Shown here in pieces: positions 3,539 through 61,800 of a stretch of DNA of 64,000 nt (its first letter is position 1; each line of letters starts with the position of its first letter). Source of the stretch: Eledone cirrhosa (lineage: Eukaryota); contig OZ024750.1 of NCBI GenBank assembly GCA_964016885.1, positions 45,260,001 to 45,324,000 on the forward strand, written 5' to 3'. The translations under genes and the position numbers were made by a program. Under the pieces are notes generated by a model that had not been told where the DNA came from, searched no databases, and saw nothing but the letters and a program-made list of their open reading frames with translations.

Positions 3539-3840
3539 CTGTGTGTGTGTGTTTGTTTTGAGTGTGTGTAGCTATATGCATATACTTACAGATGAACAAA
3601 CATACATGAATTACATCGATACATACATACATGTGTACATATATACACATATACATATATACATATATACATATACCCATAAATACAATCATTTCATACA
3701 TGCATACATACATACACAAATATACACATGCATACACGCATACATACATACATATATACGTACATTACATAGGTACATATATATATATACATACATATAT
3801 ACATATATATATATACACACATATATATATATATATATAT

Positions 3841-4039
3841 AACGAAGGAAATGTGGTAAGGAACCAGGTGGACCATAACGCACCAAAGTACTCAATACTT
3901 GAGGTAGTAGAGTGGGTAATAGGAACCAGTAAGACCCCGACAGCTGAGCTCAAGCCGTTTCGACGGCTAATTCTGGACTCAGAAGTCCAGAATTAGCCGT
4001 CGAAACGGCTTGAGCTCAGCTGTCGGGGTCTTACTGGTT

Positions 4040-4043
<4 letters not shown>
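3841..4043. mobile_element. Family D pseudo-LTR fold-back module in (TA)n
   Basis: Left arm is the reverse complement of 61219-61358; right arm is 61220-61279; flanked by (TA)n on both sides. Confidence 0.9.
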
Positions 4044-4101
<58 letters not shown>

Positions 4102-7032: not shown

Positions 7033-7270
7033 TAGAGTTGAGATGGAGGAGCTGTGGTTTTTCTCACATCTGGTTGGTCTCTGAATGTTACTTGTTTTAT
7101 ATGGAAAAAAGTGGCTCGAAATGACAGGTTTTTAGAGAAGTAATTTGATTGGTTGGTCAATAATTATAATAAATTTCGCACCAGTTCGCGTTACAAATTT
7201 CTTCAAACGGGGGGGGGGGGGGGGGCACAGGTTTTTTTTTTCATATATGAGTGTTTGAATTTCTTTTTAC

Positions 7271-7780
7271 TTGTCTTTTGCTTTTGACAAAACAATCAAA
7301 AGCAAAAGACAACCGAAATCACTTAAAACATTACTCACCAATGCCAAATTACCTACCACAAACCCACAACCAACTGTCAAAAAATGTGGTCGCTCTAATT
7401 GTGGAACCTGCACTCACCTCATTGAAGGCAACACGTATACATTTAAATCAGGACAAAATGTTGCTGTAAAAAATCACTTCACTTGCTCATCAAAAAATCT
7501 ATTTTATGCCATTAAATGTAAAGGATGCAATGAAGATTATATAGGACAAACTAAACTCACACTCAGAAACAGAATGACGGTTCATCGCCAACAATTACGA
7601 GATCCAACCACGAGACAGATACCACTAAACGCACATCTAGACATATGCGCATGTAATAAGACACCCAAATTCCAAGTCTTCCCATTTTACTTTTGCGCTA
7701 ACAATAAAACAGAGCAAATACGAATAAATAAGGAAAACATGTTTATTCAAAAATATAGACCAGCATTAAATATGCTTTAA
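7271..7780 (+). pseudogene. 5'-truncated PLE C-terminal GIY-YIG endonuclease (Neptune-like)
   Basis: KCGRSNCGTC Zn motif, NLFYAIKCKGC..YIGQT, R..H, H..C, KENMFI..Y.PALN-stop. Confidence 0.85.
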
Positions 7781-8566
7781 TATACATTATGTCAACACCA
7801 TAACATGCTAACCATCCAAACAGACACAAATACACACACACATAACACCTGCTACATTAGAAAATAAAAAACCCGAACTAAATAAACCTTAACATACGTT
7901 TGCGCTGACAATACAACAGAAGAAATACGAATAAGTAAGGAAAATATGTTCATTCAAAAATATTCCTACTAAAGGAATCATTTTCCTACACACACACACG
8001 CACACACAGAATATATATATATACTCTCTTCATCTTAACATGCTAACCATACTCCCACACACATAACTCCCATACACACACATAACCCCCCCCCACACAC
8101 ACAACTCCTTCCTCCATTTCTACTAATAGAATCACTTTCCTACACACATATATACACACACACAAAATATATATATTCTCTCCATCTTAACATACTCCCA
8201 CTCACACACACATAACACCCATATACACACACACACAACTCCCTCCCCCATTTCTACTAATAGAATCATCTTCCAATACACACACACACACACATTACAC
8301 AAACACACATATAAACATACACATCTTTACTTTCTTTACTTCAATAGAAAATCTGAATTCTGACACCCCAGCGAACTAACCATATTCACTGAACCAGAAC
8401 AATACTCCCATCCCATTTCTCTTGACCATTATCTTTTGCTTGTCATAAAATTCTCTAAAAAGGCTACAGAATAGATTTCCAAATAAGGGTGCGAAAATTT
8501 AATGAAAACTTGTTCACGTGACAGCCATAATTTCATTTATAACCAATCAAATTACGTTTATTAATT

Positions 8567-9724
8567 TATAAAAACAATGAGAATCTAAATTATGTTAATT
8601 TTAAATCTAACCACCCCACTAATATTAAGAATGCTATAGTTAGTAATATTGGAAAAATAATATCCAACCTATATTCTAATAAAAACATCTTTGATGCTAA
8701 CGCCAATTACTATACTAACGCGCTTTCTAAAGACGGCTATCCTGATAAAATCAAATATAGTAAAGAAACACATTCTAGAAGATCTTACAGTAGAATAATT
8801 AATCATGATCATTCCAATAACTTTAATAAAAGACCTAGATACAAAAACATAATCTGGTATAATGCTCCTTTCTCCATCTCTATTAATAATAATATTCCTA
8901 AATTATTCTTTAGTGCCTTAAATAAATACTTCCCTCCCTCACATATCTATAGTAAAATATTTAACAAACACACTATAACATTTTCCTATTCGACCTCCTC
9001 CAACATCTTCAACATTATCTCTAAACACAACAATAAAATACTAAATACTAAATCTTTTCCCTCCAACACTGAATATCATAATAAAAGTAATAGTACTCCC
9101 GACATCATTGTTAACTCTAGGCTAATTTCTGCAAACCGAAATACAACGTCAAACGCAACTTCGTTAAATGTTCTTAATTCCAATCTAAATCAAGAAACTA
9201 TTATTCCTATCGTAAATAACTTCTCCAATCCAATTACTTCTATAGATAACACTAGGTCACTTGTTAATAACTCTGTTAATTTCTCTAATCGCAATTGTAA
9301 TTGCCATGTTAAAAATAAATGTCCTCTCAACGACCATTGTCTTGAAAAAAACTTAATCTACGAATGTAAAGTTATAACTGACACCAATTCCTTTACCTAT
9401 GTTGGCTCCACTTCCACCTCGTTTAAAGCTCGTCTTTATAATCATCATTCGTTCTTTAAATACCAACTTAAAAGAAACAACACGGCACTCTCAGAACTCA
9501 TATGGTCATTGAAAGACAAAAATATTAACTATAACATCTCTTGGAGGAAGGTTTGTTCTACTTCTCCATACTTAAATGCTTCTATATCCAAGACATGTAA
9601 TCTCTGTTTTTGTGAGAAATTTACCATTATATCTAATTTAGATTCTATAATAAATAGACTCACTGACTTGTTTACTCTCTGCTTGCATAAATTCCACAGA
9701 ATATTCCATAAAGTATACAGCTAA
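8567..9724 (+). pseudogene. 5'-truncated Hydra-type PLE ORF (RT thumb, linker, GIY-YIG); frame open throughout but lacks a start
   Basis: Manual translation gives SNHP..IWYNAPFS..FSYST..CNCHVKNKCPLNDHC..LIYEC..YVGST..FKAR..WSLKD..CNLCFCEK; collinear with 59130-60068. Confidence 0.9.
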
Positions 9725-26569: not shown

Positions 26570-29204
26570 CCTGTAAGAAATTAACACCACCTGTACCATC
26601 TAAGTCTACCTCGAATGCTGGGGAAAACAATATCGATAATAATAATAATCAAATGTATAAACAATTGAAAATTTCCCTCAACGAAATCTTCCAGAGAGAA
26701 ATTAACTCATGTATAAATATCTCTCTGGCTGAACGTGTTAAAATGACAATGTTTAATAAAAAAAAACAAATAATGAAATATTACGTGTTAATGACGAAAC
26801 AGGGGATGAATATTTACGACGGATACAAACCCCAAATCAACGCCTGTTTATATGCCTTAGCAACAACAGTGAAGCATTATCTTGGTGATAGCAGAAATAT
26901 TAACAAGAACAGAACACCACCAAAAATACCATCATATATAACTAAAGTAGAAAAAAAGATTGCTGACCTACGAAAATCCCATAGGATAAGTGACAATGCT
27001 CCTTACATGCAAATAAACACAAAAAACATCACTCCTCACCAACAATGAGTGAAAAATGAAATAGAGACGGTGTTTGGTAACAGTAGAACCAGAACTCTTC
27101 TATATAAGCTGATCACCCTTAAACAAGAATTGAGAGCTGTTAATAAAAAAACGCCGATAGCTGAAGAAGGTAAATGAGAGAAAAGTGCTTAATAAAAGAT
27201 TCAGACGAAACCAAACATCAGTCTATAGAGATATGAAGAAGAAAATAATATGTGTCACTGAGGCCCCATCCAAGAAAGACAGATTCATTTTGGAGCAAAA
27301 TATGGGGTGAAAAGAACAATTTCAACCAAGATGCAGTGTGGGTAAGAGAAATCCGAAAGAACTATTGCTCCTACACTACAACAAAAACATACTAAATAAG
27401 TGAGGGTACCCTTGAGACTGTGATAGGAAAACTCCAAGATAAGAAAACATCAGGAAGAGACATGATTGTCAGCTACTGGTACAAAAACTGATATTCTATC
27501 GGAGGTATCTTACTAACCTCTACCAACAAGTTCTTAAGGGAGATACAAATATACCAGAATGTTTGACATTAGCACAAACATTACTGGTCCCCAAGAACAA
27601 AGACACCCACTTGGCAAAAAACTACCGACCCATTGCATGCCAGAACCTGACGTATAACATGTATACAGCCTGCCTGAACCTATTCCTCCAAGATCACTGT
27701 GGAAATAATAACATCATCACAGATGAACAACCAGCTGGAAAGAAAGGGATTTGGGGATGTGCTGAACAACTCCTAATCAATAAAACTGCGATGTCGGGGG
27801 TGCGACAACTTAGGAGGAATATGGCTACAGTCGGGCTGGACTACAGGAAAGCTTTCGATTCTGTTCCCCACTCTTGGATGATAGAGGCCCTCCAACTTGC
27901 TAAAGAACCAGACATTATTGTCAAAGCCATGGAGAGGCTGTCTTCTTCTTGAGCTATTATCCTAAGGTTAAAGACAGAGAGGGGGACTCCATTTTCACTG
28001 ATAAAATGATAAAATAAAATATCGCAGGGGTATATTTCAGGGGGACAGTCTCTCTGTGATATTATTCATCTTGTCATTAAACCCCTTGTCCTTTCTGCTC
28101 AAGAAATATGAGGGATACATCATTGGCGCACAGCAGGACAGAAATACGAATCTAACCCATAATTTCTTTGTGGACGATCTGAAACTCTATACCAAGAAAA
28201 TGGATGGGAGGAAGAAAAATCTTGATCTGGTTACAACGTTCTTAAAGGATATAGGAATGGAGTTTGGCCAAGATAAATGCTCATACATGATGTAAAGCGG
28301 GGAAAAACAAAAACCCAATCTAGTAACATTGTCATCAATGGCCTAACTGTTTCACCGATATCTGATGAGGACTGCTACAGATACCTGGGGATAGATGAGA
28401 ACATATCCTCTAATGGTGTCTGTAATAAGGAACGCGTAACCAGGAAATACTATACCCGATTAAGAAAGATTTTGTCATCGGAACTCTCTGCGCAAAACAA
28501 AACAGTGGCTCAATGTATTTGCTGTGCCTGTCCTAACACCAACGTTTGGAATACTCAATTGGACGATAGACGAAATCCGAGCAGTTGATGTTGGAACTCG
28601 AAAAATACTAAACAACACCGGAAACTTCCACATCAACAGTGACATAGACCGATTTACTTGAAACGTAAGCAGGGGGGTAGAGGCCTAACATCAGTCCAGA
28701 CAGCATTTAAATGTCGCATCATATCCCTCCGACAACATCAACGAATCTCGAAGCGTAGGAGACCGTCTCTCGAGCAACTCTATCAGCATGAAACAGATAA
28801 GATCATGAGAGTTGGGAAAGAACTCCTCGAGAGATATTCTCTGTGTTATAATCAAAACCTCACACCCAGGGAAGTCGCTCAGCAGTATCGCAGTGAATCC
28901 ATGGATGAAAAACTACATGCTTATCAGTAGAAAATAATGCGTGGATATGTTGCCAGGAAGCTCCAGAGTGAGAGTAATATAGATAAGGGAACTAGTCTAT
29001 CTTGGACCAACAACCGCTATATTGGCTCCCACTTTGAAGGATACGCTTTTGCAATCCAAGAACAGGAAATTAACACGAAATACCTGATTCACAAAAGAGA
29101 TAGGGATGCAGACACAACATGTGTCTGCATCCCTATGTGATAACAAGTGCAGACACTGCAGAACTAACATCGAAGATATCACCTATGTCATCAGCAGCTG
29201 TCCA
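26570..29204 (+). pseudogene. Decayed RLE-type non-LTR retrotransposon (R4/Dong-like) ORF
   Basis: LVPK..KNYRPIAC, DYRKAFDSVPHSW, GIFQGDSLS, FFVDDLKLY, YRYLG, RKQGGRGL, AIQEQEI.TKY, CRHC..EDI...ISSCP knuckle; many stops and frameshifts; truncated before the RLE. Confidence 0.85.
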
Positions 29205-44919: not shown

Positions 44920-45560
44920 GTACATGTATCAGTATAAACGTATGTATAGGTGTGTATGTGTGTGTGTGTGTGTACATGTTTCTGTATGATTGTATGTAGA
45001 GGTGTGCATGTGTGTGTGTGTGTGTGTGTGTACATGTTTATGTATGATTGTATGTAGAGGTGTGCATGTGTGTGTGTACATGTTTATGTATGATTGTATG
45101 TAGAGGTGTGCATGTGTGTGTGTACATGTTTATGTATGATTGTATGTAGAGGTGTGTGTGTGTGTGTGTGTGTGTGTACATGTTTATGTATGATTGTATG
45201 TAGAGGTGTGCATGTGTGTGTGTGTGTGTGTACATGTTTCTGTATGATTGTATATAGAGGTGTGCATGTGTGTGTGGGTGTGTGTGTGTGTACATGTTTC
45301 TGTATGGTTGTATGTAGAGGTGTGCATGTGTGTGTGAGTGTGTGTGTGTGTGTACCTGTTTATGTATGATTGTATGTAGAGGTGTGCAAGTGTGTGTGTG
45401 TGTGTGTACATGTTTCTGTATGATTGTATGTAGAGGTGTGCATGTGTGTGTGTTTGTGTGTGTGTGTACATGTTTCTGTATGATTGTATGTAGAGGTGTG
45501 CATGTGTGTGTGTGTGTGTGTGCGTGTACATGTTTCTGTATGATTGTATGTAGAGGTGTT

Positions 45561-45595
<35 letters not shown>

Positions 45596-46180
45596 ATGTT
45601 TATGTATGATTGTATGTAGAGGTGTGCATGTGTGTGTGTGTGTGTGTGTGTACATGTTTCTGTATGATTGTATGTAGACGTGTGTATATGTGTGTGTGTG
45701 TGTGTGTGTACATGTTTATGTATGGTTGTATGTAGAGGTGTGCAAGTGTGTGTGTGTGTTTGTGTGTGTACATGTTTATGTATGGTTGTATGTAGAGGTG
45801 TGCATGTGTGTGTGTGTGTGTGTGTGTGTACATGTTTATGTATGGTTGTATGTAGAGATGTGCATGTGTGTGTGTTTGTGTGTGTGTGTACATGTTTCTG
45901 TATGATTGTATGTAGAGGTGTGTATGTGTGTGTGTACATGTTTATGTATGGTTGTATGTAGAGGTGTGCATGTGTGTGTGTGTGTGTGTGTGTGTACATG
46001 TTTATGTATGGTTGTATGTAGAGGTGTGTATGTGTATGGAGAGGTGTGCATGTGTGTGTGCGTGTGTGTGTGTACATGTTTATGTATGAGTGTATGTAGA
46101 GGTGTGCATGTGTGTGTGTGTGTGTGTACATGTTTATGTATGGTTGTATGTAGAGGTGTGTATGTGTATGGAGAGGTGTG

Positions 46181-46225
<45 letters not shown>

Positions 46226-46771
46226 ATGTTTCTGTATGATTGTATGTAGAGGTGTGCATGTGTGTGTGTGTGTGTGTACATGTTTATGTATGATTGTATG
46301 TAGAGGTGTGCATGTGTGTGTGTGAGTGTGTGTGTACATGTTTCTGTTTGATTGTATGTAGACGTGTGTACATGTGTGTGTGTGTGTGTGTGTGTGTACA
46401 TGTATCTGTATGATTGTATGTAGAGGTGTGTATGTGTGTGTGTATGTGTGTGTACATGTTTCTGTATGATTGTATGTAGAGGTGTGCATGTGTGTGTGTG
46501 TGTGTACATGTTTATGTATGTTTGTATGTAGAGGTGTGCATGTGTGTGTGTGTGTGTGTGTACATGTATCTATATGATTGTATGTAGAGGTGTGTATGTG
46601 TGTGTGTGTGTGTGTGTACATGTTTATGTATAATTGTATGTAGAGGTGTGCATGTGTGTGTGTATGTGTGTGTGTGTGTACATGTTTCTGTATGATTGTA
46701 TGTAGAGGTGTGCATGTGTGTGCATGTGTGTGTGTGTGTGTACATGTTTCTGTATGATTGTATGTAGAGGT

Positions 46772-48345: not shown

Positions 48346-48545
48346 GCGGAGAGAGGTTTGTAATTTTGTAGAAGCAAAATCTATGCAATCCTGGCGACAG
48401 ATAGATCAAAGACAGATTAGAATGTATTCATCAACGTAGAAACACACGCATACATACATACATACACACACACGCGCACACATATATATATATATATGTG
48501 TATATAGATATATATAAGTATATATATATATATATATATATATAT

Positions 48546-48997
48546 AACGAAGGAAATGTGGTAAGGAACCAGGTGGACCATAACGCACCAAAGTACTCAA
48601 TACTTAGGGTAGTAGAGTGAGTAATAGTACCTTTTACAGTTTTACCTTTCATTGTTCTACTTACCGTTTCGACCTCCCCCCCTCACCCTCCCCAGTATCT
48701 TCTTTGACCTCACACCCAGCTGTAGCTGGCACTACCAACGCATGAATGGGTCTACTCCACCCCCTCTCCCCTTTTCTCCTACTGGCAGGTTTAGCTACCC
48801 CTTGCTCCATCAACTTGCAATCACAGATTTACTACTAACTTGTGATGTGACCAATCCTGGCGATTATCTCTCTGACCATATATGGAAATACCCCTTGATA
48901 AGTTCGGCTATTTAAATACCAGAATTAATTTTTCATTCATACAGAATTAGCCGTCGAAACGGCTTGAGCTCAGCCGTCGGGGTCTTACTGGTTCCTA
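48546..48997 (+). mobile_element. Family D PLE 3' end (48628-48997) preceded by inverted tail (48546-48627)
   Basis: 48650-48997 aligns to 60950-61279. Confidence 0.9.
48890..48983 (+). ncRNA. Family D hammerhead with U3-A8 core (predicted GUC cut after 48978)
   Basis: ACCCC-TTGATAA-GTTCGGCTA...TAGCCGTC-GAAA-CGGCT(TGAGCTC)AGCCG-TC-GGGGT. Confidence 0.75.
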
Positions 48998-49015
48998 TAT
49001 ATATATGTATATATA

Positions 49016-52000
49016 TTTAAAGGTTAAACAAGGTTCAATGAATAAATCAAAGAATAAGTTTCACAATAGATTGGAAGCACTCAACAGTTATGGTTTCCGG
49101 AGTTATTAATATTAATTAAAAATATTAACAAAAATAGACAATTCTTGTGATCAAGTATATTTTATTATACATATTTCAGAGGTACTGAGCTAACTTCAAC
49201 AGTACGTCCTCATCAGATACAATAAGATCATGCATGACATACCCTGACATAGTAGATGGTTAAGATTCAGTCATGGTAGTGAGTAAGTTATGAAAAAACT
49301 CAATATTTATATACCTTAAGATTGAGACATGAAAAAACTTACATATAATACATATAATACAGAGGGTGCGTGTGAGCAATGAAAAATGCAATAGTCAATA
49401 GTGTACAGAAGCGCATAACTAGATTATCCGCTAATAAATCCATATTTGATGAAAAAACATGATATTATAATGATGCGCTACGAAAGGCAGGTTATAAAAA
49501 TAATATAGAATATATAGTTAATAATAATTTGAATTATAATCCTGTTAAAAATAAGACTAACATATATAAACGAGATTCTAAAAATTATAATACAAACACC
49601 AGTACCGTGAATAAATCGGGGAAAAAAATCAGAACTAAATCAGTTATATGGTTTGCCCCAAGCTTATGTAGCAATAAAAACACCACTCGCAAATCTATTC
49701 TTTAAAGCTTTATATTAATCCTTCCCTATTCAACATAAATGCCGTTCCATATTAAACAGACACACAATTAAGCTTTCTTATTCTACAACTATGAATATGG
49801 CCCAGAATATCGCTAAAATAAATAGTAGAATTCTAAATCATAATCAACATACATTTAACGATAATGAATATAATAACACTAGCAATATTAACAATAACAT
49901 TAATATAAGCACAATTAATAGAACATTTCGGAGTACTAATAATGTTAATGTAAATAGTACAAGTTATAGTAATAACAATAAATCAAAATGTAATTGATAA
50001 AATAGACCAGATTGCCCTCTGCAAAATAATTGTCTGGATAGCAATATGGTCTATAAATGCACCATAAAAGCAAATAACACCACATACAACTATATTGATG
50101 CAACTTCTTCCACATTTGAATCAAGATTTGCGAATCACAAATGCTCTTTTTCGAATCCTAATGGGAAATCTTCGACTTCTTTATCACAACTTATATGGTC
50201 ATTAAAAGACAAAAATTTAGAATACTCGATTTCTTGGACGAAGTTGTCTAATAGTAGAATTTACTTGAATTCTTCAATATCACCTAACTGCAACCTCTGT
50301 ACCATGGAGACCCTATTAATAATTAACAAAAAAAGTGAATTATTCTCAAACTGCTTTCATAAAGCTTTGTCTACATTCCAAGCCTCGCAAAAAGTCAGGA
50401 AAAAAAACCCACTAAATAAACAGGTTCTAATTTTTGACGTCTTTTATCAACTAAAACGTTATAACAGATTATAAAACTTTAATAATTTTTTATTTTTTAT
50501 TCAATTATGATACGATTAATATTAGATTAAAGGGTCCTGTTTAGGTATATAAACATATAATTTGTTAACATGATCTCTTGATGAATGTGCATATCATTTG
50601 ATTGTTTAGATATATTTAATTTAGATTGGGATTCTTGTATATTTTTTAAATATATGGCTTAGATGCATAACAGTTATAATGAACTGTAAATCATTCATGC
50701 ATTTAACTTTTTGTATATTCATTCATTTGGAGTATGTTTTACGATTCAGGAAGTTTGATTTATATATTTTTATTTATATATATTTATGGTATATGCGTCA
50801 CACACGATACTGCTCGACAAACCTTTTTTTTTTCCACTTAACTTGATGTAAAACTTCAATTGTAACATTACTAACAATGATTGTACTTATTATTTATTAT
50901 ATGTATATCGATCACTAATATCTGGAATACTCTCTATATATATATATTTGAACAAATATGTATATCTAGTATAATAACATGCTTCTAGTTACATTTATAA
51001 GTACTTCGGATACTTAAATGATTTGCTAGTGTTATACTCGTTAAATATTGTCTAAATATTTTCTAAATTTTCTAAGTTATATAACGATTATTATTTAATT
51101 TAATTTAATTTAATTAAATGATTTGCTAGTGTTATAATCGTTAAATATTGTCTAAATATTTTCTAAATTTTCTAAATTATATAACGATTATTATTTAATT
51201 TAATTTAATTAAATTCGGGTTACCTTCGGGTCAATGAAATCCTTCGGTTCTCCCTTTCTCATGTTTGCAGACACTTTAGATATGATATTATACTACTATA
51301 TAAATCTTTAAAAAAAGATTTCTTGTATTTTTAAACTATATAGCTTGGATATTGGGTACTTTTAAGATCGCAAACAATTAACTTTTTTACTTTGAATCGG
51401 GTTCTTATCCTTACGATTCATGAAGTTTGACTTGTATATTTATAGTATATATGTATTACATGATACTATTATAATAATTGATCTAAAACCTTAATTTTTA
51501 ACAATATTATCAGTAACTTATTTATTGTATTGTATTATGATAGATATCATCTTAATCTTTAGACAATATAATCTTTGTTTATATTTAGAAAAATGCATAT
51601 ATCTAATATAAAATAAACTTTCTTTTAAGTTTAATTATAAGGCCTTTAGATGCTTTAAGGCATTCTAATTGTTAATCTTAATTTTTAAAATTATAACTGT
51701 AATTATTTTATAAATAATATAATGTGAATTATATTCAATATAATATAAATAATTAAATATAATTTCTGTATAGATATAATTCATCCCTCCCTATGTTTTA
51801 CACTATAAACATTATTGCTCTTTGTCTCTCTTTCCTTGATCAATTCTCTTTTGCTCTCTATACTTCTACTAGCTATATTATCCCCTCATCTGTTTTCTCT
51901 CTGTCTTTCTTTTTTCTTTCCTCTTTCTTCAATAATTTAAATTATTTAAATCAGATTATGTAAATTGCTGTTATGTATATTTAAGCTTTCTCACACGCAC

Positions 52001-53931: not shown

Positions 53932-55426
53932 ATATATATATATACAGAGTGATAGAGAGCGGGGGGGGGGTACGAATTATTTCACCGTCGAAATATTTTA
54001 ATCACATGATCTCTTACATTGACTTTAAATAATTCGCTTAGTAGTATCGTTTATTATGAACGCACGTCTGTGATTTGTTCTGATATACCATATCATTACT
54101 ATGACATTATTGTGTATGTCATTAAATACTTACCTTAAATCATTCACAATGTCTCTCTTTATTTGTCTACGTTGTACTTGTCTCAAGTACAACGTAGACT
54201 GTCTCAAATCATGAGCCTTCTTCCATCACGACTGACCATGGATTTGCCCCTACAACATCCGCATCTCTAAGGCAGTAGCCCAAAAAGGTTGTTTTGCTGA
54301 GAAAGACACAGGTCGATATATCTTGGCTCCAATGTTCAGACAACTCAATTCTTTCCAGCAGAAAGGACTGCAGCAATATGAAATCTATTGTCTTGCTAAA
54401 GGTCAAAACAAACTGACCAGACAATTGAATTGTGTGCACATTAGAGCTAAGATGTACCGATCTATTGTGTTCGCTGTTGTCCAAGGAAAAGCCACAGGGC
54501 GTTAGAATATGGCTATAATTTTCAAATAACTCAATATCTTTTCATAGAAAGGGCTGCAGCAATGTGAAATAAAATGTCTTGCTAAAGGTCAGAACAAACC
54601 GACCATTCAGGGAATTAAACTCATATCCTTCCGATTGTTATTCCAATACATCAGATCTTCCGTGAAATCACATAAAAACAAATTTAGTTGTTGATGGCTG
54701 TGAAGCAAGATATAGCAGGTTAGAAGTTGATCATATTTCTATCTTCATTTATTTATGATAGAGTCATATAGAGTGGTATTCGCACATGTTAATTGTTAAA
54801 GGCTGCCCATCTAATCCTCCTTTACTTTGAATAATTTTGCAGGTTTTATACTGGCTTATTTTGCAAATATATGTCAGGATGTTAGAGAGTTCAGTGATGG
54901 ACCAGCCGACATTAGAAACTGGAATAGAAATATTTATGGAACTAAGATAGGATGGTTACTGTTTAAATATGATGTCTTCTACAGATGATCCTCGTGGCAG
55001 AGTGGTGTAAACAATAGAAATGAGCACCGGAATGTCCCGGCTTCATACCTCGTTAGAGGAGAAAAACAGGAGAAGAAGGACACCTAGGAATCATGATCTG
55101 GGTGGGCCCCAGCACCATTTAAGTGCCAGGGGGATGCTATCAGAATTAGAGCTAATCTCATAAAAATAAATATAGTTGTTGACGGTTCTCGAAGCAACAC
55201 TTAATAGGTTAGAAGTTGATCATATTCCTATCTTGTCTTATTTACGATAGAGATTTAGATTTATAGGTGAGAAATAAAATTCCTCGCTGCAGATTAAGGC
55301 TTTGACGTTTCAGTGTCCGTAAATGTTTGTATAATAAGCGTAAATATAATGCCTGAGGAAACGAGAATACGCAGATGCTGCACGTAGTGACGCAGAAGTC
55401 AGCAGCCGAGTATATGTATTATATAT

Positions 55427-55612
55427 AGGAACAAGTAAGACCCCGACGGCTGAGCTCAAGCCGTTTCGACGGCTAATTCTCAGAATTAGCCGTCGAAACG
55501 GCTTGAGCTCAGCCGTCGGGGTCTTACTGGTTCCTATTACCCACTCTACTACCCCAAGTATTGAGCACTTTGGTGCGTTATGGTGCACCTGGTTCCTTAC
55601 CACATTTCCTGT
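55427..55612. mobile_element. Family D fold-back module
   Basis: Near-perfect hairpin centred at about 55480, plus tail. Confidence 0.9.
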
Positions 55613-55626
55613 ATTATATATATCTA

Positions 55627-55713
<87 letters not shown>

Positions 55714-56443: not shown

Positions 56444-56518
<75 letters not shown>

Positions 56519-56522
56519 ATAT

Positions 56523-56709
56523 AACGAAGGAATTGTGGTAAGGAACCAGATGGACCCTAACGCACCAGAGTACTCAATACATAGGGTAGTACAGTGGGAA
56601 ATAGGAAAAAGTATTACCCCGATGGCAGACCTCAAGCCGTTTCGACGGCTATTTCTAAACTAGAAATAGCCGTCGAAACGGCTTGAGATCTGCCGTTTGG
56701 GTCATACTT

Positions 56710-56744
<35 letters not shown>

Positions 56745-56781
56745 AAAAAGTAGGACCCCAACGGCAGAGCTCAAGCCGTTT
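56523..56781. mobile_element. Family D subfamily fold-back (56523-56715) and stub (56742-56781)
   Basis: Homologous to 61220-61358; helix III loop reads AGATCT. Confidence 0.8.
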
Positions 56782-56836: not shown

Positions 56837-57624
56837 TTGTATGTGTAACATTAAGTTGGCGTGTCTGAACAAAATATATGCTTTTGGTTGATGGCTGATT
56901 AACGATAAATGCCTCCAGGTAGCAACAAATTGTGTGCCTTAGGAAAGTATATGCCATACTATCATGTTTTTAAAAGTTAATGCATTCTGCTATATAAGCA
57001 GATCCTTGTTAAAATCAACAACACATTCTTTACATACCATATACATTATACCATATATACACTTCCTACGAAAAATATTCAAATAATTAAATATGTAGAT
57101 GTATTATATATATGGTTAAGATGCTAATAATGCATTTATACACTCGAAAACAAGAAAGGGAATCTTGCCTGAAACGCCTACAGGAATCGAAGCATGCTTT
57201 TGTTGTTTTCTGAGCAACCGCGTAAAACATTAAAACACGATGACTAAGACATAATTGCTTTAATTCTGCAGTTTACTCTTATCTAAGATGTCCCAAAACG
57301 CTTGAGTTTCTTATAACCTCAGACAACCGAAGTCAAACTTGGGGGTCTTCTTGTGACGGAGACATTTAGAACTGACTATGGGAAAATATGAGTTAGTGGC
57401 GCATTAAGATCCGTAGCTCCAGACAAACAAGATTCGTGAGCTTTAGGTGACAGTCTGCCGGCAAAATGCGCAGAAAATACGAAGGGCAAATGATAGTAAA
57501 TGAAGCAAAGTAAAGTAATGTTTTACCCTGTGTATTATGTCATGATATTTCAGGGCTAATACCGCCTTTTCTCTTTTTAACATGCAACACTGAAACAGTC
57601 AAAACTAAAACAAGCGAACAATTT

Positions 57625-57850
57625 GAGCTTTCTTCTGTAACTGGCTCTATGTATTCTTAGTTTAAAGTTGAGTTGAGACAGGGATCCAGTCGTGCCTGGA
57701 TGTTCAGCCTCAAATTTTATGTGTGCGTGAATGATGTAGATCTTGACTGCTTCTCCACGTGATGAAGTGAGGATAAGTATGTCATCCACGTACCTGGAGA
57801 AGAAGGAGCAAGAGTGAGTGCTGTATGCTTCAACTGGTCAATGAAAGATT
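57625..57850 (-). pseudogene. Old Penelope-type RT remnant, head-to-head with the Hydra-type element
   Basis: Minus: FIDQL..TAL / SFFSRYVDDILIL..IKFEAE..SL..LNF..I..YR.K. Confidence 0.65.
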
Positions 57851-57906
57851 AGATACCACGCCGTATCCAGACTTTTCCGCTAAGCTCAATTCATTTCACC
57901 CGCACC

Positions 57907-60068
57907 ATGCGAAAACACAACATTGACTTCTCTACCAAGAACATCCCAATCCCACCGAAAAAACTTTACCTTCGGATGCTCACGCAAAAAATCGATCTAT
58001 TTGCGAAAAGACTTAGATGGAGAACTTTTTTCTATGACAGATATTGCGACAACCAAGACTTCGGCACCAAGGAGAGATTCGGATTTATTACCTACAAATC
58101 TCCGCCCCTGAACCCCTTGCTCGCACCCTTCGAGAATGACCTCTTCCAACTGGCCAAGAACATTAAATTTTAAACCCAGACACAACCGATTCCTACAAAA
58201 ACTCCGTAGCAACTTAACAGAGTATGATAACACAAATGACATCATGGTGCATTCGGATAAAACTGGGAACCTATACTTTGTCAACCCTGACAGATACCAC
58301 ACACTGATCAGGAGCAGCCTAAACTCCACCTATAAAAAGGCCAACCACTCTTGCATCGAGGACATAAATCGAGATGGACAACAAATCACCTCCAGCCTCG
58401 GGGTCGCCGACCGCACGGAACCTCTAGACCCACGGACACCATACTTCACACTGAAGGACCATAAATCCGATTTTGACCGTAAACCCTCTATCAGGCTTAT
58501 TAACCCAACGAAGTCCGACATAGGGAGAATCAGCAAAAAAATCCTAGACCGCGTGATACCAAAAGTCAAGCAACACACCCGACTTAGCCTATGGATCAAC
58601 ACCCAGGAAGTAATCTCCTGGTTCAGCAATATGGAGGATAAACGAGAAACTAAATTCATACAGTTCGACATAGGGAGCTACTATGCTTCAATCACCTTAC
58701 CGCTACTTACTGCCGCCTTGGACTTCGCCGAAACACTCGTGCCCATCACCGACCAGGAAAGAAAAATCATCCTCCACGCCAGGAAGACAGTCTTACTCTT
58801 TGACGACTCTAAATGGATAAAAAGAGCTCCCGACTCACCCTTCGACGTCAGCATGGGCGCCACGGATTCGGCGGAGGTCACTGATCTTATAGGATTATTC
58901 CTAATAGCCAAACTCACTGATATGTTTCCTGCATTCGGTGGTGGATTGTACCGTGATGATGGGCTCCTTACCCTTAAAGGGTACAACCCCAGTTGCACAG
59001 ATCGGGTCCGGAAACAATTAATCAGATTCTTCCGCGACTGGGGATTTAAAATAAGCCTACAAACGTCCCTGACCCGAGTAAACTTCCTGGACGTGACCCT
59101 CGACCTCGAAAACGACCTGTACTACCCATACAGGAAACCTAATGACAATCTGCACTACATCCACCGCCGATCAAACCATCCTAGGAATATCACAAACAAC
59201 CTGGTCAAAAACATCTCCCTCCGCATATCCCGTTTGTCAGCTAATGAGCGGATATTTGATGAACATGCGCCTTATTACAACCAGGCCCTCAAGCGGAGTG
59301 GTTTCCGGGAGGAAATATCCTACTGTCCAGCTCCCATTACTGGAACCAGCAGGAGACACCGCCGCTCACGCAATGTAACATGGTTCAATCCTCCCCACAA
59401 CGCAGAGGTGACTACTCCCATCGGGAAACTATTCTTTAGGCTCATTGAAAAACACTTCCCATTACAACACCGCTACCACAACATAATTAACAAAAATACC
59501 ATCAAACTCTCTTACAGCACTACACCAAACTTCGCACAAAACATCGTCTCCTCTAACAACAAAAAACTCAACCCCGATGGCAGAAATAACCTAAATAGCA
59601 GTGGAGAACCGACCAGGAGGTGGTAACTGCCCGGATAGATCTATTTGCCCACTCGACAATAGATGCAGAGACCGTAATGTGATCTACCAGTGCAACGTGA
59701 GGACGGATACCTCCAACAAAGCCTATATAGGACTTACCGCATGTGACTTCAAGACCCGGCTATACCAACATAGACATACCTTCCGAAACCCGGCCCGGCG
59801 TCACGCCACTACACTTGCGGGCCACATATGGGACCTCAAGGACAACAACATCACCTATGATCTCACTTGGAGATTACTGTCCAGAGCCAATTCTTACACG
59901 GGAGGACGCCGTCCGTGCAATTTATGCTCGGAGGAAACTTTACAAATGCTGTTTTCGACGGACCAACTCCTAAACAAGAAAGATGAACTGGTTACTGCAT
60001 GTAAACATAGATTGCGTAGGACTTACCTCGCCCTCAAACCCCATAATGACCCGGGGGGGGTAGACTAG
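57907..60068 (+). CDS. Hydra-type PLE polyprotein (RT + GIY-YIG), about 719 aa if two single-base insertions are removed
   Basis: FSTKNIPIP..KRLRWR; SDKTGNLY; TLKDHK..RLINP.KS..G; FIQFDI..YY.SI; FDVSMG..D.AE; GLYRDDGL; VNFLDVTLDL; SNHP; WFNPP; C.C-x5-CPL..C; NVIYQC..YIGLT; CNLC.EE. Frame jumps +1 at about 58170 and about 59622. Confidence 0.9.
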
Positions 60069-61171
60069 TGCTATAACACCCCACTTGCCGATTTTGCAAT
60101 GGGTAACCCCTGCTTGCCAAGGAAGACGTAAGATCTTCTTTGTATTCTTTTATCGCTTCCTTTATTTCCTTCCCCCCTCTCTCCCTTGTCCTTCTACCCC
60201 AGCTCTTCTCCTTTGTCGGCGTCTTTTCTCGCCCACCCGAGGCTGCCCTTTGGCCCCATGTAGCCTTAGTACCCCCACCACCCCCTCCCCTAGTCTATGA
60301 TAGATTTGGCGGACTCCGCCCTTTATAGCAGTTGGCTTAGACCCCGGACACTTGCCCCCTTTTTCCGACCGCTCCCACTATTCTCTGTGCCCTCTATATT
60401 TCTTAGTGGCACTTATGCCTTATTTTTTCGTTTCAGTATTTCTTGCTTCGCTTTTCTTCTGGGCGGGGTGGATTCTGAATTTATTTCTCCGTATTCTACC
60501 TTTATTTCGTACGAACTTTCATGTAGCTTGTTTTAGATCTTTTAGAGTTAGCATTAGTATATATTTTTCTCGGGACTCAGAATTATCATCTCGTACAAGT
60601 TCACTTTGCTGCACTGGGTCGTTGCTGGCCCGGGATGGAAACCTTTATTGTTTATTTCGTGGTAGTCTCTTTAGTATTTTGGCCCCTTTTGTTGACCCGT
60701 CACCGTATCATTTACGTACTTATACCTCTTAAAAGGGTCCTTGCCTATTCCGTCCCACCTAGTTCTTTTACTTATTTCGTTATTTATTTATTTATTTATT
60801 TATTTACTTCTTTCTTTCTTTATTTATTTTATTCTAGCCTAACAATAGCCTGACACCTAGGTCGTAGAATTTAATTTACTTTACTTTTTTCTTTACACTT
60901 ATTTGCTTTTCTTCACTCTCAGTATTCTTTCTTTCCTATTTCTACCCCCCATTGTTCTACCTACCGTTCCGACTTCCTCCCCCTCCCCCTCCCCTGTATC
61001 TTCTTTGACCTCATGCCCAGCTGTAGCTGGCACTACCAACGCTTGATTGGGTCTACTCCACCCCTCCCCTTCTTTCTCCTACTGGCAGGTTTAGCCACCG
61101 TCTCGCCTACTAATTTGCAACCACAGAATTACTACTGATTTTTGACAATCACTTTGACCATATATGGAATT

Positions 61172-61265
61172 ACCCCTTGAGAAGATCGGCTATTTAAATA
61201 CCAGGATAAATTTTCATTTAGTCCAGAATTAGCCGTCGAAACGGCTTGAGCTCAGCTGTCGGGGT
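61172..61265 (+). ncRNA. Family D hammerhead with U3-A8 core (predicted GUC cut after 61260)
   Basis: ACCCC-TTGAGAA-GATCGGCTA...TAGCCGTC-GAAA-CGGCT(TGAGCTC)AGCTG-TC-GGGGT. Confidence 0.78.
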
Positions 61266-61356
61266 CTTACTGGTTCCTATTACCCACTCTACTACCTCAA
61301 GTATTGAGTACTTTGGTGCGTTATGGTCCAGCTGGTTCCTTACCACATTTCCTTCG

Positions 61357-61399
<43 letters not shown>

Positions 61400-61400
<1 letters not shown>

Positions 61401-61800
61401 GTTATTCCGGGTTGAATCGGAGGTAACCACAGTAAGTAAGGTACTCAATACATAGCAGAGTATAACAGTTTTAATATAGATGAGATTCTACAGGACTAGA
61501 ACTGTTTCATTCATTAGAAATCATCAGTAAGGTACTCAATACATAGCAGAGTATAACAGTTTTAATATAGATGAGATTCTACAGGACTAGAACTGTTTCA
61601 TTCATTAGAAATCATCAGGAATCATGCACAAGAACTTTGCAACATTCAAACACTTTAAGCCAGTGTTAAAGCCCGATGGCTAAAAACGACCTCCCCCTAT
61701 TGGCCCCTATACCTCCTCCCCACCCTACCCCCACCCCTCCTCAACCTGAAATACGGCCACTATGGTCATGTGAGTACCTCTTTCGTATCTACTTTTTCTG
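61400..61800 (-). mobile_element. Family C PLE 3' end with 91-bp tandem duplication; complete HHR at 61575-61623
   Basis: Minus: GATTC-CTGATGA..GAAA-CAG..CTG-TA-GAATC; 61437-61527 is repeated at 61528-61618. Confidence 0.8.

Follow-up and report, generated by a model that had tools for sequence, protein, structure and literature searches.

The 3' end of a Hydra-like Penelope-like element (PLE) in Eledone cirrhosa carries a hammerhead ribozyme fold of type I with U3-A8 in the core, which, judged from genomic sequence, quite probably cuts the RNA of the element in vivo at 61260/61261 (coordinates are those of the window, i.e., the whole stretch of 64,000 nucleotides that was analysed). The fold occupies 61172..61265 on the plus strand and was identified from the sequence and by fold prediction. 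Stem I (61172-76/61261-65, read from the sequence) leads into the core UUGAGAA (61177..61183; U3 U4 G5 A6 G7 A8 A9, with U3 at 61177 and A8 at 61182), which is followed by stem II with one bulged U (61184-92/61230-37), the GAAA at 61238-41, and the 6-bp stem III (61241-46/61254-59). U16.1 lies at 61259 and C17 at 61260, and the predicted scissile bond joins C17 to G1.1 (61260..61261). The three helices, the core, and the cleavage triplet that an earlier sequence-only reading of this DNA had described were all found where it had placed them; loop II, given there as about 35 nt, measures 37 nt (61193..61229). Loop II is fast-evolving (62 changes at 39 aligned columns), and the palindromic hexamer of loop III (61248..61253), a predicted dimer contact, is invariant, with 0 changes across subfamily majorities. 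Stem I is predicted to extend through an internal loop by pairing of GGAA (61166-69) with UUCC (61274-77), enlarging the structure to 61166..61277 (p 0.99), and both 4-mers are found in nearly all subfamily majorities. With three helices around the core and an open stem I, the fold is of type I; U4 G5 A6 A9, G12 A13 A14, A15.1-U16.1, and H17 are all present in 61172-61265, and U3-A8 provides a Watson-Crick 3-8 pair in both full copies in the window.

The hammerhead is the minimum-free-energy fold of 61165-61275, with predicted pair probabilities of 0.74-0.98 for stem I, 0.61-0.76 for stem II, and 0.48-0.75 for stem III; the folding energy itself is unremarkable (z 0.37; matched by 131 of 200 shuffles). 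A three-helix descriptor that allowed any Watson-Crick 3-8 pair found 2 sites in the 64-kb window versus 1 match across 60 dinucleotide shuffles. The expectation that CUGANGA-based searches would miss this hammerhead was borne out, e.g., the core does not match the canonical CUGANGA consensus, and an Rfam search over 61100-61340 gave 0 matches at E<=10. Over the whole window, Rfam returned simple-repeat miRNA noise among the matches listed (at least 150 of 308). When majority changes were counted across subfamilies (with a 3-copy cluster omitted and some neighbouring subfamilies merged), 3 changes fell on 48 structured sites versus 86 on 48 free sites, and the 10 core sites other than 3 and 8 did not change at all (p 9e-8). 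One stem II pair is compensatory (G-C/A-U) and the helices are otherwise invariant across subfamily majorities; a candidate pairing between loop II and the bulge, judged by eye, fails to hold across subfamilies. These sequence comparisons indicate that 61172-61265 is a real hammerhead fold under purifying selection. Cofolding predicts a dimer in which stems I and III are intermolecular, at -71.5 versus 2 x -27.5 kcal/mol (-55.0), i.e., favoured by 16.5 kcal/mol.

The host element (57854..61356, plus strand) is 5'-truncated and lacks an upstream pLTR or inverted arm. Its reverse transcriptase (RT) and C-terminal GIY-YIG ORF (57908..60068, plus strand) runs through three frames, with frameshifts near 58171 and 59623. 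Both single-base frameshifts are absent from all sibling alignments of at least 90% identity that span them (4 distinct loci each); by this comparison they are private to the window copy. The description of the element as near-intact is to be read with the two private frameshifts and the 5' truncation in mind. Among 6,903 candidates, 873 ORF homologues were found at E<=0.001, the best being 54% identical and almost all being without a name; tblastn of 713-aa homologues spans the ORF in three frames with the endonuclease domain aligned, and Pfam recognised neither the ORF nor its homologues. An RWR motif lies in the N-terminal frame, DKT at 58256, CNLC (CxxC) at 59916, and CKH (CxH) at 60000; a CX5C is readable with its first Cys across the second frameshift, and no CCHH lies between the GIY and YIG equivalents. 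Together with insertion into (TA)n, these motifs assign the element to the Hydra-like PLEs, in line with the host type proposed before. As had also been stated, the family is the most numerous repeat cluster in the window (13 loci versus 7 for the next). Non-LTR retrozymes consist of non-coding tandem units with one hammerhead each, whereas this element is protein-coding and dispersed.

The PLE tail (61280..61356, plus strand) is defined by copies that end at 61280 or near 61356 and then run into (TA)n; of 422 alignments, 94 end at +19 and 86 at the long end (~+95). By analogy with the lizard PLE in PMC11167929 (published work is cited here from the available portions of each source), these two 3' ends are likely two reverse-transcription start sites. 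At 4 distinct loci (L044/L347, L298, L374, L392) the tail runs via 37 nt into the equivalent of 57854, and in tandem copies G1.1 lies ~190 nt upstream of the ATG. The unit between cut sites would therefore comprise G1.1, tail, leader, ORF, 3' UTR, and C17 (~3.6 kb). With the Hydra clade (Craig et al. 2021, PMC8557442) the element shares RT and C-terminal GIY-YIG domains, RWK-like and DKT motifs, CxxC/CxH, and the lack of CCHH, as well as (TA)n targets, a 3' hammerhead, and inverted truncated arms with tail. The clade is described there as 'generally <3 kb', compared with ~3.6 kb here, and C3, G8, and a helix III of 2-4 bp are found in every one of its file S2 hammerheads; a C3-G8 core and a length of <3 kb are, in the available text, described tendencies rather than definitions, and the Eledone cirrhosa element shows neither.

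Further copies of the family occur in the window. A second full hammerhead (48890..48983, plus strand) with a UUGAUAA core belongs to a sister young subfamily and lies in an inverted two-arm insertion (48503-48998); its minimum-free-energy structure is an alternative fold, not the hammerhead. It had been said that only N7 varies between the two copies, which is right within the core, whereas position 10.2, one stem III pair, and loop II differ outside it. Two head-to-head two-arm insertions of the same family, 3800..4044 and 55425..55629, have arms truncated at the equivalents of 61220 (both arms) and 61224/61225, respectively, and arms of the older subfamily, truncated in loop II, lie at 56482..56781. 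Other repeats were also seen: pieces of a second Hydra-like PLE that is more distant at 8543-9724 (+) and 49391-50360 (+) (~30% protein identity to P0003), a GIY-YIG endonuclease ORF fragment at 7259-7780 (+) (PF01541, E 6e-7), probably from another PLE, and a reverse transcriptase fragment at 27443-27952 (+) (PF00078, E 6e-9). Immediately upstream of the element's 5' terminus, on the opposite strand, lies an RT-like relic with YVDD (57577-57837, minus strand; Pfam search negative). A different (TA)n-associated repeat family with 7 window loci abuts the 3' end (61400-61623) and contains a 96-nt tandem duplication (61435-61530 / 61526-61621), and both strands of a large internal repeat at 44974-46769 contain long open frames.

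The state of the 3-8 pair was then considered across the family. Exact core patterns in genome G000, counted with one pattern form for the 3/8 combinations U3-A8, C3-A8, and any G8, gave 4,220, 1,500, and 49 matches, respectively, the G8 cores being 39 U3-G8, 9 C3-G8, and 1 A3-G8. The C3-A8 mismatch thus makes up about a quarter of full-length cores, and C3-G8 accounts for 9 of 5,769 core matches, as scattered single-copy changes. An independent DNA run (X1), which may derive from the same organism as G000, has T>C as 24% of the depth at 61177, and at 61182 (A8) no variant reaches 5%. N7 is occupied by all four bases among the U3-A8 genome matches. For an older subfamily, with another loop II and A-U for G-C in stem II, 282 matches were obtained, and 87 among the first 100 of these have U3-A8. 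A separate set of 108 mostly C3-A8 matches is biased by the leading AT of its query and is unusable as a proportion.

Copy trees (90 and 114 copies; midpoint-rooted, with copies without upstream homology excluded) form a ladder whose end branches shorten toward the window copy. Its order runs from old U3-A8, past a U3-G8 side branch, to U3-A8, a long C3-A8 trunk, and finally young U3-A8, in which both full window copies fall; a small long-branch clade is an artefact, as the upstream of its copies ends in an inversion. The branch on which U3 became C also saw C7 replaced by G. The small, old side branch with the U3-G8 wobble core includes loci L061-L090 and L121-L150, and U3/A7/G8 is present in 14 of 18 cluster copies. 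Within the C3-A8 phase there were 0 changes at structured versus 8 at free sites (p 0.004), and constraint on the core alone in that phase was not significant (p 0.22). The ladder indicates that the 3-8 pair was lost over a long stretch and then regained, with the helices kept throughout. The full 3-8 pair was not required for amplification, because the C3-A8 trunk lineage amplified and mismatch-linked copies bear the same footprint at the cut site as described below. The proposal that U3-A8 is a compensatory swap is therefore incomplete: U3-A8 is the family norm, yet the pair was not strictly maintained, as the 1,500-copy C3-A8 lineage shows.

Metagenome relatives of the element comprise 77 loci, and among the 44 with a hammerhead call (a hand count, with some loci redundant) 40 are C3-G8, 1 is G3-C8, 2 are U3-A8 (L207, L256), and 1 is doubtful; nearly all have 1-3 bp of helix III beyond A15.1-U16.1. 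The G3-C8 case, a Hydra-like relative on metagenome contig WLWI01015891.1 (L199), carries this core in both terminal repeats (285 and 2788) and adds a third naturally occurring 3-8 pair to the clade. Since the published Hydra hammerheads in PMC8557442 file S2 are all CUGANGA, as are the 3-8 positions in 40 of those 44 relatives, the window copies might be regarded as decayed versions of a CUGANGA family. This is hardly credible: it is refuted by the core counts in G000 (4,220 U3-A8 versus 9 C3-G8, the latter scattered) together with U3-A8 in the older subfamily, and A8 is free of variants at 5% or more in the independent DNA run. On the basis of the genome counts, the trees, and the metagenome relatives, U3-A8 is taken to be the ancestral, majority state of the Eledone cirrhosa family and recurrent in the clade, and for that reason the copies are not decayed.

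As a novelty, however, the swap does not stand. Natural hammerheads with U3-A8, active in vitro, were reported by Perreault et al. 2011 (PMC3088659), who describe the same 3-8 covariation; an amplified C3-A8 mismatch lineage as in Eledone cirrhosa is absent from the available part of that paper. In PLE pLTRs, U3-A8 was reported by Cervera and De la Pena 2014 (PMC4209133), with ~1,300 matches in Schistosoma and the statement that there is no in vivo evidence. The Cercyon PLEs of Schistosoma mansoni described there are alike in having a type I hammerhead in a terminal repeat, the U3-A8 swap, and a palindromic helix III that suits dimers. Their hammerheads are minimal, without a stable helix III, whereas in that of Eledone cirrhosa helix III measures 6 bp, loop II has 37 nt, and stem I is extended. 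By itself, the U3-A8 swap is thus ordinary, a known core variant. Nothing that alters the hammerhead reading was met in the available parts of bioRxiv 10.64898/2026.07.22.740005, PMC6765202, PMC7151607, and PMC7229834.

Evidence for cleavage comes from the genomic ends of copies. Copies whose three bases upstream of a given position all differ from the element were counted as starting there; 1,001 copies in G000 start at G1.1 (61261), compared with 55 at -3 and 178 at +2, the two control positions counted, and the excess over -3 is ~8-10-fold after composition correction. The first 100 of the 1,001 matches comprise 61 clear junctions, 11 ambiguous ones, and 28 that are intact with an indel. 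Inspection of 73 of these 100 gave 9 that are intact with a 0-2 nt indel, 19 with a partner arm also ending at G1.1, 11 ambiguous via G microhomology, and 34 with another flank; the other 27 are 19 extra-G matches and 8 arms of palindromes. In all, 25 of the 100 matches have one extra G at the site and were scored as G-run slips, of which some may be re-joining scars. A further 3-4 unclean apparent G1.1 ends in the set of 422 alignments were left out of the count.

Several junctions are informative in kind. At 48 loci, 31 of which were inspected, two arms that both begin at G1.1 face each other head to head as a palindrome, with a single A or T between them; a zero-insert palindrome (L448) lies in the 10 kb immediately upstream of the window. 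Locus L359 (G000:C1:157490870-157491290) has a full 5' half up to C17, an A-rich run of 30 nt, and then G1.1, with the hammerhead otherwise intact, and looks as if a tail had been added to the 5' cleavage product before RT joined it up again. At L355 (G000:C1:148857715-148858135; 102-203), U6-like 3' ends lie between the two arms of an insertion and are joined at G1.1 on both; from weak Rfam matches (E 0.002 and 0.008, below the gathering score) it would be a PLE-made U6 snRNA-like chimera. In L298, L374, and L284, the junction at G1.1 is a jump into an internal part of the element. The base preceding G1.1 is T in 27, A in 21, and G in only 5 cases (n=53), so there is no cap signature. Junctions of this kind are what RT run-off at a free 5' end would leave, and they have been used in this way for R2 ribozymes (PMC3774820); RNA of the family is very probably cleaved in vivo at this site.

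Cut-site ends nevertheless amount to a few percent of arms, and the majority of copies run through the site unbroken (20,062 long-tail copies). Within the window and a 200-kb flank, after ends at +4 to +8 had been dropped as (TA)n noise (260 of 316 pair rows, including panel-edge rows), 32 of 50 arm ends fall at -44 to -30 and 2 of 50 at the site. The former mark a 15-nt zone at the boundary of loop II and stem II (61217-61231, plus strand), in which the majority of copies are truncated at the 5' side or inverted and where depth also rises steeply in X1; an RT block, a protein footprint, and a second RNA end are candidates for its origin. In 14 of 56 other pairs (hand count) the two arms end within 1 nt of each other, and both arms ending at the site was accordingly downgraded as proof of cleavage. 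Among 19 inspected of the 55 matches at -3, the partner arm extends across the site in 11. A literature search that covered few subscription papers showed no account of genomic ends at the hammerhead site of a PLE.

The same footprint is linked to the C3-A8 lineage by a shared tail. At a diagnostic site of this tail, TT is found in 7 of 8 readable C3-A8 copies and in 11 of 11 readable G1.1-start copies, and TC in 5 of 5 transitional U3 copies (L361 was left out of the tally for its C17 deletion); the tail of the G1.1 copies L371 and L407 goes with C3-A8 in 6 of 7 short-tail copies. By hand tallies, perfect palindromes are enriched among young U3-A8 tails (41/48 versus 51/100) and depleted in mismatch-linked tails (6/48 versus 36/100, p 0.003). 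Depletion as proof of a dead C3-A8 core was rejected, since the older U3-A8 tail is depleted too (0/48 versus 10/100) and age confounds the comparison. The literature search, with its coverage of few subscription papers, returned no hammerhead report on C3-A8 and none relevant on G8A. Single changes at 3 or 8 have low activity in vitro (PMC9901934, where a G-C rather than a U-A swap is described as rescuing in that construct), as do C3G and G8C (PMC11167929). The C3-A8 footprint may thus reflect retained in vivo activity, or trans cutting in dimers, or, as it occurs in copies linked to a change class of low activity in vitro, it could be non-catalytic. That the C3-A8 core itself self-cleaves is a tentative proposal, on which doubt somewhat prevails.

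These observations would be accommodated as follows. Cutting of tandem transcripts would delimit a unit RNA that runs from G1.1 through tail, 5' leader, ORF, and 3' UTR to C17, and the RT of the element would start at two sites, 19 and ~95 nt beyond the cut. On an uncut or re-ligated template, RT would copy through the ribozyme and usually stop in loop II; on a cut template, it would run off at G1.1 and add an untemplated A or T or jump to the 3' end of another RNA, so that arms of 20 nt and 95 nt start exactly at the cut site. Cutting would be partial or slow, as a monomer or as a dimer via the palindromic loop III. It would be under selection, yet full 3-8 pairing may be dispensable for it, because the C3-A8 lineage amplified with the same footprint. 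A works-like analogue is found in the HDV-like ribozymes of R2 (Eickbush et al. 2013, PMC3774820), where the cleavage site is recognisable from genomic 5' junctions that carry untemplated bases and template jumps; R2 differs in ribozyme class and element, and its cut defines most full-length 5' ends as opposed to a few percent of arms here. The Poseidon PLE of Anolis carolinensis (PMC11167929) has two RT start sites downstream of the hammerhead, which explain its tail, and both of its strands are extended. It has a C3-G8 core whose cleavage needed protein and was not required for insertion in vitro, and the available account shows no RNA ends at the site, whereas genomic ends pile up at the site in Eledone cirrhosa.

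Alternatively, the fold may serve as a conserved RNA handle for the protein of the element, with little or no cleavage, and the G1.1 ends would then be RT pauses at a G4 run or three-way junction combined with template switching. G1.1 does open a G4 run at which RT pausing is possible, the C3-A8 lineage reached 1,500 full cores and has G1.1 ends, core-specific constraint in the mismatch phase was not significant (p 0.22), and, in the portion of PMC11167929 available, lizard PLE mutants with a dead hammerhead inserted in vitro and RNA-seq showed no ends at the site. Against this, the other 10 core positions stayed unchanged over the ladder (p 9e-8), the ends are sharp after the fourth G (many of the listed +2 matches, 178 in count, fit GG microhomology with the partner arm by eye), and L359 combines a C17 end that is tailed with a start at G1.1; a handle with little cleavage is thus considered unlikely. 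A transcription start or nuclease-processing site at G1.1 has in its favour that C/G at -1/+1 fits a pyrimidine-purine initiator and that G1.1 lies ~190 nt upstream of the ATG in tandem copies. It is very improbable given the lack of an extra cap G (5/53), the match of G1.1 to the hammerhead scissile bond to the base, and the upstream product ending at C17 in L359.

Cleavage by the hammerhead remains the preferred reading, and a further account, which concerns the mismatch phase only, is compatible with it: U3-A8 would cleave and C3-A8 be inactive, with mismatch RNAs cut in trans in heterodimers with older U3-A8 transcripts via the palindromic loop III. The predicted dimer with intermolecular stems I and III, favoured by 16.5 kcal/mol, the invariant loop III hexamer, the palindrome depletion in mismatch-linked tails, and the later return of the lineage to U3-A8 are consistent with trans cutting, but the older U3-A8 subfamily is depleted as well, which brings in age, and in the broader G1.1 class mismatch-linked tails (22/75, hand count) are near their 37% share; it is a possible account, held with less than even confidence. 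A still bolder formulation, rather unlikely on the present sequence comparisons, would treat the genome as a fossil in vivo assay in which hundreds of RNA 5' ends at the scissile bond, and in one case both ends of the cut, were recorded by RT, with the C3-A8 core itself cleaving during amplification to ~1,500 copies, possibly with protein help or a C3-G7 register shift, before reverting to U3-A8.

The value of this family therefore appears to lie in a genomic cleavage footprint and a natural mismatch series, both read from DNA. The role of PLE hammerheads has been called unclear (PMC8557442). Copies starting at the scissile bond offer sequence-level evidence of germline cleavage, and the hundreds of copies at the predicted cut site make this disputed role testable; the same 5'-end count is applicable to any high-copy PLE. 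The dated series of U3-A8, C3-A8, and U3-A8, with a U3-G8 side branch, provides natural single mutants of a textbook tertiary pair on one scaffold, with which monomer, homodimer, heterodimer, and protein-assisted cleavage become directly testable.
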